From the sequence record PZ386951.1: a stretch of 64,000 nucleotides of DNA. One strand, given 5' to 3'. Below the pieces are notes generated by a model that worked only from the letters and a program-made list of their open reading frames with translations, ran no database searches and was not told the DNA's origin. This DNA comes from a phage. Numbering within the stretch: position 1 is the stretch's first letter; every line of letters starts with the position of its first letter. The position numbers were made by a program, and so were the translations under genes. Positions 2,844-7,747 of the stretch are shown here, in pieces.

Positions 2844-3803
2844 TCACTTCCACTGCATTTCGCATGCCAATTGAATGAAAAGATATGCTAAATGTAACTC
2901 AGTATTAGCCGCAATTCCATGATACTGGTTATTTTCACCAACAATTTCATACATACGAATAATACTTTGCGGAGTTACACGTGTATAGATTTCTTCGGCA
3001 AGTTTACCCACGAACCACGAATAATCGGCTGCATATTTTGGTGCTAAAGCTCTGAGTTGTTTAACATCTTTATTTTTGAGAGACTCAAGAACATCATCAA
3101 TAGCACCACGATCGTTAGTAACCAGTGATAAAATACCAGCATCCAAAACACCTTTAGATGAATAACTATCGAGCTCACCAATAGTTTTACGAAAATCAGG
3201 AAAATTCTTTTTAACCAAAGCTGCTACAACTTTCATATCAGCTATAGCAATACCTTCATGTTTACAGATTTCAGTCAATCGACGAATCATCTGCTTCATC
3301 ATTTCAATTTTATCTTCATCGGTCGGTTGACCGAACGTAATAACTCGGCAGCGTGACTGAAGTGGTTTAATAATACCATCAATATTGTTAGCAGTAATAA
3401 TAATACTACAGTTTGAACTATAAGCTTCCATAAAGGAACGAAGATGTCGCTGAGACTCTGCTAGCCCTGAGCGGTCAAATTCATCAATAACAATTACTTT
3501 TTGACGACCATCAAATGAAGCTGCACTAGCAAAATTAGTCAAAGGACCGCGAACAAAATCAATTTTACAATCTGATCCATTCACAAACATCATATCAGCA
3601 TTTACATCATGACACAATGCTTTTGCTACAGTTGTTTTACCTGTTCCTGGAGAAGGAGAATGAAGAATAATATGTGGAATCTTACCTTTACTTGTAATAG
3701 ATTTAAAGGTTTCTTTATCAAAGGCGGGAAGAATACATTCATCGATAGTAGATGGACGATATTTCTGTTCAAGAATGTGTTCTTTTTCATTTACGGTAAT
3801 CAT
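2844..3803 (-). CDS. 44: clamp loader AAA+ ATPase gp44
   Basis: Walker [11 protein letters not shown], Walker B VIVIDEFD; start taken at internal MITVNEK (319 aa) rather than the 324-aa track ORF. Confidence 0.9.
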
Positions 3804-3837
3804 AATTTCCTCATTCAAGTTTTAGTGTAAATTATAA

Positions 3838-3851
3838 AGGGCCGAAGCCCT
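3838..3851 (-). promoter_or_regulatory. GC stem-loop with UUCG loop between genes 45 and 44
   Basis: agggc cgaa gccct inverted repeat. Confidence 0.45.
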
Positions 3852-3854
3852 CTA

Positions 3855-4541
3855 TTAAAAATCGTGGGTAGAATCAGCTTCAAGAGCTACTACATAATTC
3901 GCGTGTTCACCTTCAAATTTAGCAGCACCTTGTTTACCTTTTGCCCAGAGCAGAAGTTTATAATTTCCTGGTTGCATTTTCATATTTGCCATATTGATAA
4001 TGAAATTAAATGTATTTTCACCATCATAATCACCAAGAGTCAAAGAATATTTAACACGGGTCAGAGCAGAATCTTCTACTTTATTAAAACCGTTAATTAC
4101 GATTTTACCTTCTTTTACCGTGATAGCAATTGTATCAATTTGCAGACCACGAGATACACGCAACAGTTGTTGAAGGTCTTCAGCTTTAATTTCAGTAACA
4201 ACAGATGCTACCGGGAATGGAATTGGTTTATTAGGAGCAACTACTGTACTCGGATCGGCTGCTGGCCAAAAAATTGTTGAGCGGGCATCAGCAATTTTAA
4301 TATTTCCATCTTCTGACTGAGAAATTTCTGCATCATCATTAACTAAAGACAGAATACCGAGAAAACCGTTCAAATCGTAAATTGCTACATCAAAATCAAT
4401 AACGTCAGAAATATTTGCTTCCGCATAAGTTGTACCATTAACTGCGCGAGTCATAATAAATTGACCGGATTTAAGCATAATACCAGAGTTAATAGTAGCG
4501 AAATTTTTCAAAATATTCAGTGTGTCTTTAGATAATTTCAT
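3855..4541 (-). CDS. 45: sliding clamp gp45
   Basis: 228-aa [23 protein letters not shown]...; matches T4 gp45 as recalled. Confidence 0.92.
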   Translation of the reverse strand: MKLSKDTLNILKNFATINSGIMLKSGQFIMTRAVNGTTYAEANISDVIDFDVAIYDLNGFLGILSLVNDDAEISQSEDGNIKIADARSTIFWPAADPSTVVAPNKPIPFPVASVVTEIKAEDLQQLLRVSRGLQIDTIAITVKEGKIVINGFNKVEDSALTRVKYSLTLGDYDGENTFNFIINMANMKMQPGNYKLLLWAKGKQGAAKFEGEHANYVVALEADSTHDF

Positions 4542-5425
4542 TTCAATTTCCTATTTACATAATAGTTAGACCAGGACCGTACAGCACCCTGATAAGATTC
4601 GTCGTTAAACCCATTAGCTACTGCAATTTTACGAAATTTATTATAACTTGGTTTTCCGTAAGCATGCCATAAAGATTTTAATTCATCTTCATGTTCAATC
4701 CAAGTTCCTCTAGCTTTAGATTTTCTAAATTTTGATTTGAATTCCGGTAAATTATTTCTAACAGTTGCTTGAATTGAAGCTCTCTGTCTTCTTTTAGCAT
4801 TATTCCATAATTCTTTTTGAGATTTAGAAATTTTTGATCTTACACTTTCTGAATTCATTATATCACTAAACTTTTTAGCATAACTACAATCAAGATATTT
4901 CAATTTCATCTTATTTGAGAGTTTAAGCTTTTTCTCATCGGTCCAGTGATTCTTCATTGAATTAGATATTTTGTATTTTACTTCAGAACTATGTTTGTAA
5001 CCTTTACGAATACCGACATACTCAGGCGTAATTTCAGATTGCGAAAGCTTTACAATTTTTCCAGTTAAAACATTTTTATATGTTCCATATCCTTTAGCAC
5101 CAATTAAAGTATTTTCATCTGCGTATGCTTTATTAAAATATTTTATATTACTTTTTGCTTTAACTTTTAATTGAAAAAATCTCTCCAATTTTCTTGGATC
5201 TAATATAGTTTCAGCTAAAATTTTGACGGTATATTTAGTGGTTTTAATAAGTTCAAAATATTCATCGCTATAACTCGATGACACGCTTCCAGTATAAATC
5301 TTTCCAGCTGAATCAATTATATTTGTTCCATCGAAAATTGCGTTAATTTTTGAACCTATATAATAACACGGAAAAATATTTTTAGCTTCCCGCTCTGGAA
5401 AGCTAATAAGATATACTAAATTCAT
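4538..5425 (-). CDS. putative Seg-like homing endonuclease (GIY-YIG-like N-terminus, NUMOD3-like repeats)
   Basis: 295 aa; N-terminal [23 protein letters not shown] resembles a GIY...YIG motif; C-terminal [15 protein letters not shown] and [16 protein letters not shown] resemble NUMOD3 repeats; 4-nt overlaps with rpbA stop and gene 45 start. Confidence 0.5.
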
Positions 5426-5811
5426 TTATTAAACTCGGCCACAATTGTTTCCGCAACAATTTGTGCAGCAACAATCAGACGTTCATCTGCATTACCACAA
5501 TAATCATCTTCAAGGCGTTCACCGCATGAAGTCATAATAAATTTAGCACCGGCGTTTAGGGATTCTGTAGTATGTTTGCGCATTAGTTCAATCCATTTAT
5601 TACTTACTTCACGATCGATAGCTTCATAATACGCATGACGAGCAGGTGCAGATTTAATTTTGTTCTGAATAACTTCCATTGCGTTATCAGAAAGAGACAA
5701 AACCCATGCTCGACGAATTTTATTTTGGTTTTGTGGATTTGATTCAGAACGCACGTGTTTTGGCTGAATATCTTTTACGTCAACAGTATAATTCACAGTA
5801 ATTTTAGTCAT
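5422..5811 (-). CDS. rpbA: RNA polymerase-binding protein RpbA
   Basis: 129-aa ORF in the T4 rpbA position; size and sequence consistent with recall. Confidence 0.75.
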
Positions 5812-5820
5812 AATACACCT

Positions 5821-6009
5821 TTAGTCATAATAATCAGTAACAGTCCAAGCTTCATTTCTATTGGACATTATTTTTGTATATTCTGCTTTAAATGCATTCC
5901 TAAGCATAGATTCAGTAACTATATGCTCTTCATTAGAAAAATTATTTCTCAGAATATATCGTTTTATTTCAGGAATAGTTAATAGATGCTGTCCAGTTGA
6001 ATATTCCAT
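5821..6009 (-). CDS. hypothetical small protein (T4 45.1/45.2 position)
   Basis: 62-aa ORF on the coding strand between rpbA and gene 46. Confidence 0.4.
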   Translation of the reverse strand: MEYSTGQHLLTIPEIKRYILRNNFSNEEHIVTESMLRNAFKAEYTKIMSNRNEAWTVTDYYD

Positions 6010-6064
6010 GTTTTTCCTCCATAGAGATTATACTCTAATAAATTAAAGCATAATCTCTTATAAA

Positions 6065-7747
6065 TTAAACCATTACAGTAAATCGACCGACTTTCTTCAT
6101 TTGAAGATGCTGACCATATTCTTGCGGGTCATGGTCTTTATGCGAAATTATAAAAACATTAGTGTTTTTCATTGAATTTATAATATTAGCTACACCTTTA
6201 ATACCTTCGGCATCAAATGACCCATCAAACACTTCATCAAGAATTAATGTACTAATACTAACACCAGATACGATAGAAGCAATATCACGCCAAGTAAATA
6301 AAAGAGCAATATCGATTCGTGCCTTTTCACCTTCACTAAATGAAGCATAACTAAAATCTTCACGACCACGGGATTTAATTGTCTCATTAAATTCTTCATC
6401 TAATGTAAACACATAATCCGCTTCCATTATTTTAAGATAATGGTTAATCTGCTTATTAAATAATGGAATGTACTTTTTAATAATAGCACCTTTAATACCA
6501 GAATCTTTGAGCATATCAGTCAAAATTCCTCGGTGATATTTTTCCATTACTAAATTAGTTTTTGTCTTAACAATTTTATCAAGTTCTTCTTGAAGCAGTG
6601 CTATTTCGTCAGCATGGTCAATAAACTCAGAAGATGCTTTTTCTATAGCTGCTTTAACTTTTTTGGCTTTATCTACCGTCGTGATTAGAGATTGCTTTTT
6701 ATTGCGAATATCATTTGCCAACGACTGCTGGGTTTTAATATTATCTCGGTATTCATCAACAAGAACTTTTAAATTATCACGATGTGTTGAAAGCTGTTCA
6801 AACGAATGCGTACATTCAGAAACTTTATCTTTAATTTTAGAAACAACTTTATCACCGGAACTCAATTGTGACAAACAGGTTGGACATAATCCACCTTCGT
6901 GATACATATTAATGACTTTATTATATGAGTCAATTTTTGATTTAATTAAAAATGCTTCTTGACCGATTTTATTAAATGCATCAGTCGGGTCTTCATCCAA
7001 AACAATATTAACTAATCTTTCATTAGCTTCTTCTATTTCCGATTTTAGCGTTCTAGCTTCTTTTGCCAAATCATCATACATATTTTGTAGACGAGTAAGG
7101 TTGTCACCCGTTAATTTTTTCTGGCGTTCAACGTTATCATTATATATTTTAATTTGTTGGATAATACTATCTTTTTTAACATCAAGCACTTGGTTTTGTG
7201 AATTTAATTCACGTATTAGTGCTTTATTAAGCTTATCCATTTCAGCTAATGTTCCTACCTCAAGCAGGTCTTCCACAAGCTTTCTTCGCGCAGGGGTCGA
7301 CAAACCCATGAAAGGGGTATACCCTGCTGTACCAAGGACAACAATCTGCTTGAAACTGGCATATGACATTCCGATAAGCTGTTCAAATTCTGCTTGGAAA
7401 TCTTTACTGCTGGCAGATTCATTAAGACGTGTACCGTTAACGGTGATTTCGAAAACGTTTGGTTTTTGTCCTCTTTTGATATAGTACTTTTTCTCATCAT
7501 ATTCCATCCACAGTTCAACTAAAAGTTCTTTCTTATTTGTGCTGTTTATTAATTGACCTTTCTTTACATCACGGAATGGCTTGCCAAAAAGCCCAAATGT
7601 GATGGCTTCTAACATAGTAGACTTACCACCGCCATTTCGTCCAGTAATAAGAGTTTTTTGAACCTTATCTAATTGAATGTCAATCCCATTTTGACCAACT
7701 GACATTATATTTTTATATTTTACTCTATTAAGTTTAAAATTCTTCAC
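6065..7747 (-). CDS. 46: recombination/repair nuclease ATPase subunit gp46 (Rad50/SbcC-like)
   Basis: 560 aa; Walker A GRNGGGKST near N-terminus, long coiled coil with CPTC zinc hook, C-terminal signature/Walker B LILDEVFD. Confidence 0.9.
   Translation of the reverse strand: MKNFKLNRVKYKNIMSVGQNGIDIQLDKVQKTLITGRNGGGKSTMLEAITFGLFGKPFRDVKKGQLINSTNKKELLVELWMEYDEKKYYIKRGQKPNVFEITVNGTRLNESASSKDFQAEFEQLIGMSYASFKQIVVLGTAGYTPFMGLSTPARRKLVEDLLEVGTLAEMDKLNKALIRELNSQNQVLDVKKDSIIQQIKIYNDNVERQKKLTGDNLTRLQNMYDDLAKEARTLKSEIEEANERLVNIVLDEDPTDAFNKIGQEAFLIKSKIDSYNKVINMYHEGGLCPTCLSQLSSGDKVVSKIKDKVSECTHSFEQLSTHRDNLKVLVDEYRDNIKTQQSLANDIRNKKQSLITTVDKAKKVKAAIEKASSEFIDHADEIALLQEELDKIVKTKTNLVMEKYHRGILTDMLKDSGIKGAIIKKYIPLFNKQINHYLKIMEADYVFTLDEEFNETIKSRGREDFSYASFSEGEKARIDIALLFTWRDIASIVSGVSISTLILDEVFDGSFDAEGIKGVANIINSMKNTNVFIISHKDHDPQEYGQHLQMKKVGRFTVMV

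Follow-up and report, generated by a model that had tools for sequence, protein, structure and literature searches.

A putative SegG-like homing endonuclease gene at the rpbA–45 junction of T4-like phages

The gene between rpbA and gene 45

The rpbA–45 junction was analyzed in a 64,000-nt stretch of phage DNA (PZ386951.1), hereafter called the window, to whose positions all coordinates refer. The genome to which it belongs is T4-like (Tequatrovirus). At this junction, an open reading frame (ORF) of 295 amino acids (aa) with an ATG start occupies 4538..5425 (-), and its stop codon is at 4538-4540. Its upstream neighbor is rpbA (5422..5811 (-)), and its downstream neighbor is gene 45 (3855..4541 (-)), which encodes the sliding clamp and is the presumed target gene. 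The three genes are on the same strand. The rpbA–ORF–45 segment is 99.5% identical to the segments of Shigella phage SHBML-50-1 and Escherichia phage PaulHMueller. The ORF listing, PHROG matches, similarity to SegG, and the ratio of nonsynonymous to synonymous substitution rates (dN/dS) all pointed to a free-standing Seg-type homing endonuclease gene. We estimate a probability of about 85% that the ORF is a free-standing T-even Seg (GIY-YIG) homing endonuclease gene, carried on a promoter-less cassette that replaced the intergenic spacer and itself encodes signals of gene 45. An earlier interpretation made from the letters alone (the sequence-only reading) had proposed a Seg-like, free-standing GIY-YIG gene inserted between rpbA and gene 45 and missing from T4, and every available computational test agreed with it.

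The ORF shares a 4-nt ATGA overlap with each neighbor, as the sequence-only reading had described. At the upstream overlap (5422..5425 (-), AATAAATGAATTT), the rpbA stop codon TGA (5422-5424) overlaps the endonuclease ATG (5423-5425), an arrangement that may couple the translation of the two genes. At the downstream overlap (TTGAAATGAAATTA), the endonuclease stop codon TGA (4538-4540) overlaps the gene 45 ATG (4539-4541). In T4 and in phage G8, a 55-bp non-coding spacer alone separates rpbA and gene 45, which bears out what the sequence-only reading stated for T4. No long ORF competing with the 295-aa ORF was present on either strand in the ORF listing. Among six intact Tequatrovirus copies compared, dN/dS was 0.08–0.15. 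Because the ORF has full-length homologues, shows this dN/dS, and faces no competing long ORF, it is not a chance reading frame. No paralogues of it were found in the window.

The 295-aa protein matched PHROG 655 ('homing endonuclease') over its full length (E = 4.6e-33) and phrog_7504 (also 'homing endonuclease') over aa 1-103 (E = 4.7e-18). The match to T4 SegG covered aa 1-102 with 39.8% identity (tblastn, 50,697 phage records, E = 2e-9), and a pairwise BLASTP with SegG gave 40% identity over 102-103 aa (E = 1e-16). An exhaustive hidden Markov model search of 1.84 billion representative proteins found 262 relatives. In several GenBank and RefSeq records, the ORF is already annotated as a (putative) homing or DNA endonuclease, and no published description of an rpbA–45 endonuclease gene was found in the literature searched.

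In an alignment of 100 family sequences, Y22, G24, Y44, S47, and N98 were invariant, and V4, Y5, P19, I23, S25, K26, G46, E81, and F97 were at least 90% conserved. The GIY-YIG-like start noticed earlier is indeed present as V4-Y5...Y22-I23-G24, and its columns are invariant or nearly so. Judged from the alignment, the conserved set includes the GIY and YIG tyrosines plus the active-site Glu (E81) and Asn (N98) of GIY-YIG enzymes; the equivalence of E81 and N98 to I-TevI E75 and N90 was taken from motif order and helix position, not from residue-level superposition. In the pairwise alignment, SegG has both residues as well. The 100-sequence alignment yielded a confident AlphaFold2 model (mean pLDDT 88). 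In the model, V4-Y5 is located on strand 2-8 and Y22-I23-G24 on strand 21-26, and these two β-strands are adjacent. The catalytic domain has the characteristic GIY-YIG α/β fold, and the nuclease fold on which the earlier proposal depended is therefore present.

The N-terminal GIY-YIG catalytic domain (about aa 1-105; 5111..5425 (-)) contains V4-Y5, Y22-I23-G24, K26, Y44, E81, and N98, and is 59% identical between lineages. A helical NUMOD3-like repeat region (about aa 141-235; 4721..5005 (-); model helices 147-235) is the least conserved part, with 37% identity between lineages. The C-terminal helical domain (aa 236-295; 4541..4720 (-); helices 241-289) is the most conserved, with 76% identity, and is presumed to recognize DNA. 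Searches with Pfam, a PDB profile, and Foldseek gave no match for this domain of about 60 aa. Its high conservation would fit a common DNA target, and the 3' end of the gene also appears to be under nucleotide-level constraint.

The NUMOD3-like repeats of the sequence-only reading were weak in the query and well represented in its family. The query's own Pfam NUMOD3 (PF07460) score was E = 0.1 (13 bits vs a cut-off of 20.4) at residues 142-158, whereas 72 of the 100 aligned relatives matched NUMOD3. Because its own score is sub-threshold, the repeats are considered degenerate in the window's protein. All Pfam hits of the 295-aa protein were sub-threshold (DUF7132, DUF4476, and NUMOD3). A PDB sequence search with a 6-sequence profile gave no match. 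The 100-sequence profile matched a single element, the NUMOD3 helix in the DNA-binding domain of I-TevI (1i3j_A, E = 7.6e-4). Alignment of the family with I-TevI by hhalign also covered only the NUMOD3 region (E = 1.8e-4); residues 161-200 of the I-TevI sequence used there agree with the 1i3j_A segment.

SegG is among the closest named relatives of the rpbA–45 protein, and both have YYIGSK, GK.Y, ER, and YFN motifs. Like segG, which lies between genes 32 and 59, the rpbA–45 gene is a promoter-less cassette co-oriented with an essential replication gene directly downstream. They differ in site (59–32 vs rpbA–45) and in length (210 vs 295 aa), and the proteins are unrelated after aa 102. SegG has been proven experimentally, whereas the rpbA–45 protein was assigned from sequence. 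SegG is listed among the active GIY-YIG endonucleases, with gene 32 as its target (PMC2988022); by the title of Liu et al. 2003, as cited there, the cut in gene 32 is distant from segG. In contrast to this distant cut, the target suggested here abuts the insertion. The distance for SegG is roughly 330 bp.

I-TevI is encoded in the intron of the T4 td gene, whereas the rpbA–45 gene is free-standing. The catalytic domain has no detectable sequence similarity to that of I-TevI. The GIY and YIG tyrosines are canonically separated by 10-11 residues, and the spacing in the rpbA–45 protein is longer (16 aa). The protein further differs from I-TevI in having a 25-30-aa insert with a conserved Y-x-G-S motif and no evident zinc finger, and no part of it matched the helix-turn-helix (HTH) domain of I-TevI. 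Other PHROG 655 and phrog_7504 genes of T4-like phages belong to the same catalytic family and are likewise free-standing, patchy, and located beside replication or recombination genes, but they differ in their C-terminal regions and insertion sites. Only in the Tequatrovirus, Mosigvirus, Gaprivervirus, and MHG19-like lineages does insertion at rpbA–45 go together with the conserved C-terminal domain.

Distribution among T-even genera

For Tequatrovirus, 25 of 466 junction-probe matches contained the gene (about 5%; 25/625 with a wider probe), counts that include GenBank/RefSeq and other duplicate pairs. The gene was present in 10 of about 154 Mosigvirus records (AV109 and others) and in 3 of 34 Gaprivervirus records (TH15 and VR26, the latter counted twice). 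In the MHG19-like group, which is related to Yersinia phage MHG19, it was found in metagenomic contigs only. Comparison of the junction across T-even genomes showed that the ORF is missing from T4 and from about 95% of close relatives, as had been expected of an insertion. The homologues in Mosigvirus, Gaprivervirus, and the MHG19-like group have 56-59% aa identity and all lie exactly at rpbA–45. Within a genus, the flanks of carriers and non-carriers are 97-99% identical and collinear, and the empty Tequatrovirus site is the 55-bp spacer.

The sequence-only reading had taken the insertion to be specific to one lineage, and this part did not stand. Because the gene is patchy within Tequatrovirus and diverged homologues occupy the identical site in other genera, the sequences identify it as a site-specific mobile family common to several genera, not a lineage marker. 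Yersinia phage MHG19 itself is without the rpbA–45 gene. An ORF annotated as 'homing endonuclease' lies just upstream of its 45.2, on the opposite strand (OQ331036.1 32378-33094). A scan of IMG/VR with the 295-aa protein gave no related loci; a scan with gp45 gave 16 loci, and the endonuclease gene was present in 0 of the 14 examined.

Some copies are decaying, in Mosigvirus often so. The Mosigvirus copies of FL18 and AV111 are frameshifted or truncated, and in both the 3' end with the gene 45 ribosome-binding site and the promoter-like motif is still intact. Split annotations in AV115, JM17, and G2285 suggest frameshift or truncation there too. The decayed copies fit the gain–decay cycle of homing endonuclease genes. 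In Shigella phage ESh24 (record marked UNVERIFIED), a Tequatrovirus copy is broken by a 1-nt insertion, which may reflect real decay or an error in sequencing.

Relatives with the same catalytic domain were found at other sites. An ORF adjoining gene 49 in T4-like phages is 43% identical over aa 1-103, and more distant relatives also occupy the segG site of other genera. Salmonella phage GRNsp7 has a Seg-like gene of 284 aa (ON720975.1 84147-85001; PHROG 655, E = 8e-45) between 46.2 and 46, which is present neither in the window nor in T4. With this insertion, several patchy endonuclease genes that belong to one family are found in the 47-43 replication/recombination cluster. In metagenomic T4-like contigs, a 322-aa relative with the same catalytic domain (phrog_7504, E = 1.4e-15) is located inside uvsX. 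The insertion yields separate RecA_N and T4_UVSX_C ORFs, so that this essential recombination gene is fragmented.

These distributions bear on an alternative in which the ORF is not an insertion at all, but an ancestral Tevenvirinae gene lost by most phages, including T4. Its occurrence at the same site in four genera would be expected of such a gene. However, the non-carrier spacers in all four groups share one design, a promoter-like element followed by a '(G)AAAGG(A/T)AAT' leader, and about 95% of members would need many independent precise deletions, each rebuilding that spacer. Flanks that are 97-99% identical within a genus are also at odds with an ORF that is 56-59% identical between genera, and close relatives are found at other sites (46.2–46 in GRNsp7 and the interior of uvsX). 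Taken together, a patchy distribution at one constant site, copies in decay, and shuffled domains are what a homing endonuclease family is expected to show. They argue against a repeatedly lost ancestral gene, which we regard as very improbable.

Probable gene 45 expression signals in the cassette

The 55-bp spacer of T4 that is lost in the window holds TTGCTTTA-N12-TAAAAT, a match to a MotA-box middle promoter, which is probably Pm45. The middle promoters Pm45.2 and Pm45 have been named, and Pm45 has been assayed by primer extension (PMC6024815). The native gene 45 leader in T4 is GAAGGAAATTACATG. In the window, the gene 45 Shine-Dalgarno sequence AGGAAA (4547..4552 (-)) lies 7 nt before the gene 45 ATG, within the Arg-Lys codons of the endonuclease gene, which ends in AAT AGG AAA TTG AAA TGA. 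The last codons, TAT TAT nnn AAT AGG AAA nnn AAA TGA, are identical in four diverged lineages; across the whole endonuclease gene, the same codon was kept in only 34 of 113 conserved-aa columns of these lineages.

A candidate MotA-type middle promoter for gene 45, TGCTTAC-N12-TATAAT, is embedded in the endonuclease gene at 4640..4664 (-), about 100 nt before gene 45 begins. At the corresponding codons, the other three lineages read (A/T)ATGCTTTA-N12-TATATT, with conserved motifs and a variable spacer. MotA-type patterns were found 18 times in the window, with 2.2 expected, and the pattern variant that fits the embedded site had 5 matches, with 0.39 expected. In segG and others, promoters of the downstream gene are embedded in the endonuclease coding region and are said to hinder loss of the endonuclease (PMC2988022). 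The cassette may follow the same design for gene 45.

The endonuclease gene itself probably relies on the 45.2-rpbA transcript and on translational coupling, given that no late-promoter consensus is nearby, no Shine-Dalgarno sequence was seen, and the start abuts the rpbA stop. The T4 late-promoter consensus TATAAATA was not found within 3800-6200, and sigma-70-like matches in the same interval were at chance level (11 vs 12 expected). Inspection by eye revealed no Shine-Dalgarno sequence upstream of the endonuclease start. The start is packed against the rpbA stop in the other lineages too, with a GTGA overlap, a TAATG overlap, or a 5-nt spacer. A MotA-type promoter-like site upstream of 45.2 (6027..6050 (-)), probably Pm45.2, is the likely source of the transcripts that carry the promoter-less endonuclease gene.

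Two RNA hairpins were considered and not accepted as functional parts. One is terminator-like and covers codons 7-15 (5406..5382 (-)), with a 10-bp stem followed by AAAUAUUUUU. It recalls the internal terminators of mobE and segF, but its fold z-score was only -1.6 and its U-tract is interrupted. Mosigvirus has no such hairpin, and two other lineages have different ones. The other is a weak hairpin over the endonuclease start codon (about 5415-5439 (-)), which was not significant.

The embedded signals raise the alternative that the gene is a retained passenger. The endonuclease would then be inactive or irrelevant, and the DNA would be kept for the only Shine-Dalgarno sequence of gene 45 and perhaps for its main middle promoter, so that deletion would be lethal. 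The location of the gene 45 signals in the endonuclease 3' end is in line with this, as is the persistence of frameshifted Mosigvirus copies with that end intact. No equivalent of the catalytic Arg was identified, and the same retention argument has been made for segG and others (PMC2988022). However, the whole protein, the N-terminal domain included, is under purifying selection (dN/dS about 0.1), and the catalytic-motif residues are invariant or nearly so across 100 relatives. Retention alone would also leave unexplained why the same family arrived at one site in four genera and why its frequency is a patchy 5-9%. We consider the passenger alternative improbable.

Junction changes and the inferred target

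About 4 kb around the site was aligned for 7 Tequatrovirus carriers and 8 non-carriers. From window position ~6805 to 2726, the two sets had reliably aligned fixed differences at both insertion edges and nowhere else. The insertion takes the exact place of the 55-bp spacer. At the left cassette edge, the rpbA 3' end (5423..5441 (-)) is altered; all copies have AAA TGA for CGT TAA, and up to 6 codons are changed in some. A linked tract extends further into rpbA, and its length differs among carriers, which suggests different recombination end-points. At the other edge, codons 3-6 of gene 45 (4524..4535 (-)) have three synonymous substitutions (CTG>TTA and GAT>GAC), which may be part of a target or immunity site.

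The start of gene 45 is changed in the other genera as well. Between carriers and non-carriers, the first 30 nt of gene 45 have 13 mismatches in Mosigvirus (elsewhere in the gene 0-2 per 30 nt) and 7 in Gaprivervirus (elsewhere 0-3 per 30 nt). In both genera the changes include TCT AAA > AGY CGT, a maximal nucleotide change that keeps the Ser and replaces Lys by Arg. Dense and mostly synonymous changes within these 30 nt are a feature of three genera. In most non-carriers examined, other genera included, this part of gene 45 is ATGAAACTGTCTAAAGATAC or a close variant. The non-carrier MHG19 natively has the AGT CGT form.

At least three Tequatrovirus non-carriers, RPN226, ERS-1, and LH2, have the TTA...GAC patch beside a normal 55/56-bp spacer, although this allele was otherwise observed in carriers only. 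Each may be a conversion product, a resistant variant, or a representative of the cassette's ancestral background.

These changes suggest that the enzyme recognizes or cuts the gene 45 leader and first codons, and that the carrier allele is immune. From the sequence comparisons, we regard the odds of this as roughly even. If the start of gene 45 is the target, the genomes with the patch alone would be conversion products or resistant variants.

Alternatively, the enzyme could be active and cut at a distance, hundreds of bp away in gene 45, rpbA, or beyond, like SegF and SegG. The substitutions at the gene 45 start would then be co-converted donor sequence, or compensation for the new leader in translation initiation or RegA binding. 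A distant cut is the rule for characterized free-standing endonucleases (PMC2988022). Linked substitutions at most 17 bp from the insertion are expected from linkage anyway, and, as the leader of gene 45 is changed, its early-codon changes could be compensatory. On the other side, the 7 carrier and 8 non-carrier copies show no other fixed difference in the aligned interval. A distant target would thus be the same in carriers and would expose them to self-cleavage. Mosigvirus and Gaprivervirus also show, independently, the clustering at codons 2-9 of gene 45, with maximal nucleotide and minimal amino-acid change, and patch-only non-carriers exist, as conversion tracts centered on a nearby break would give. 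A distant cut is in our judgment less likely than not.

For the preferred explanation, a free-standing Seg endonuclease gene on a promoter-less cassette, we propose the following mechanism. The cassette would be transcribed with 45.2-rpbA, and the endonuclease would be translated by coupling to rpbA through the ATGA overlap. Its SegG-like GIY-YIG domain (aa 1-105) would cut DNA, the NUMOD3-like helices would contact DNA as in I-TevI, and the C-terminal helical domain would read the target. In a mixed infection with a non-carrier relative, the enzyme would cut the relative's DNA near the rpbA–45 junction. Repair of the cut genome from the carrier would then transfer the gene, together with roughly 10-30 bp of sequence on each side, which would amount to intronless homing. 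The cassette has replaced the whole 55-bp spacer, including its MotA-box promoter-like sequence and the gene 45 leader. The loss is compensated by the gene 45 Shine-Dalgarno sequence in the last codons of the endonuclease gene, and probably by a middle promoter that depends on MotA and lies about 100 nt ahead of gene 45.

Several observations count against this explanation. The Pfam GIY-YIG models (PF01541 / PF19835) did not match the 295-aa protein even at E = 10. The proven enzyme SegG was likewise not matched by Pfam, so these models appear insensitive for the SegG-like subgroup; 7 of the 100 aligned family sequences matched Pfam SegE_GIY-YIG. Sequence profiles (PDB search and hhalign) gave no link between the catalytic N-terminal domain and I-TevI, and Foldseek with the full-length model gave no match. 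Across 100 relatives, the segment after the YIG strand has no conserved Arg to match the catalytic R27 of I-TevI; K26 (at least 90% conserved) and K42 are candidates for that position. The MotA box of the window copy, TGCTTAC, is less canonical than the boxes of the other lineages. Regarding the target, characterized Seg enzymes usually cut hundreds of bp from their own genes (PMC2988022), and a target adjacent to the junction would be atypical for them. Only 6-17 bp separate the insertion from the substitutions in gene 45, and plain linkage could account for their association with it. At least 3 Tequatrovirus non-carriers share the carriers' gene 45 allele. The literature searched contained no biochemical or genetic data on the rpbA–45 protein.

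The annotation of SHBML-50-1 also includes a 73-aa ORF between regA and gene 43; T4 and G10400 have no such annotation.

An element of this kind is textbook T4 biology, and the basic finding is unsurprising. What is new in the literature searched is a SegG-like family dedicated to the rpbA–45 junction in four genera. A further reading, which we put forward tentatively and hold to be somewhat doubtful, is that this cross-genus family recognizes the conserved gene 45 translation-initiation region and, unlike the characterized Seg enzymes, cuts beside its own insertion, having captured the ribosome-binding site and a MotA-dependent promoter of gene 45. If so, no clean deletion would be possible, because signals of an essential gene would have been captured. 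This reading would explain why a single element, though rare in each genus, has persisted at one site across at least four genera of Tevenvirinae. Carriers, non-carriers, carriers of decayed copies, and non-carriers with the putative immune allele form natural panels. They offer a convenient system for mapping the target of a Seg enzyme, and for asking whether the capture of an embedded promoter and ribosome-binding site stabilizes selfish genes. The family could also help explain why markers are excluded locally near the clamp and clamp-loader genes when therapeutic or model T-even phages, such as the BASEL phage Bas45 (PaulHMueller), are crossed.

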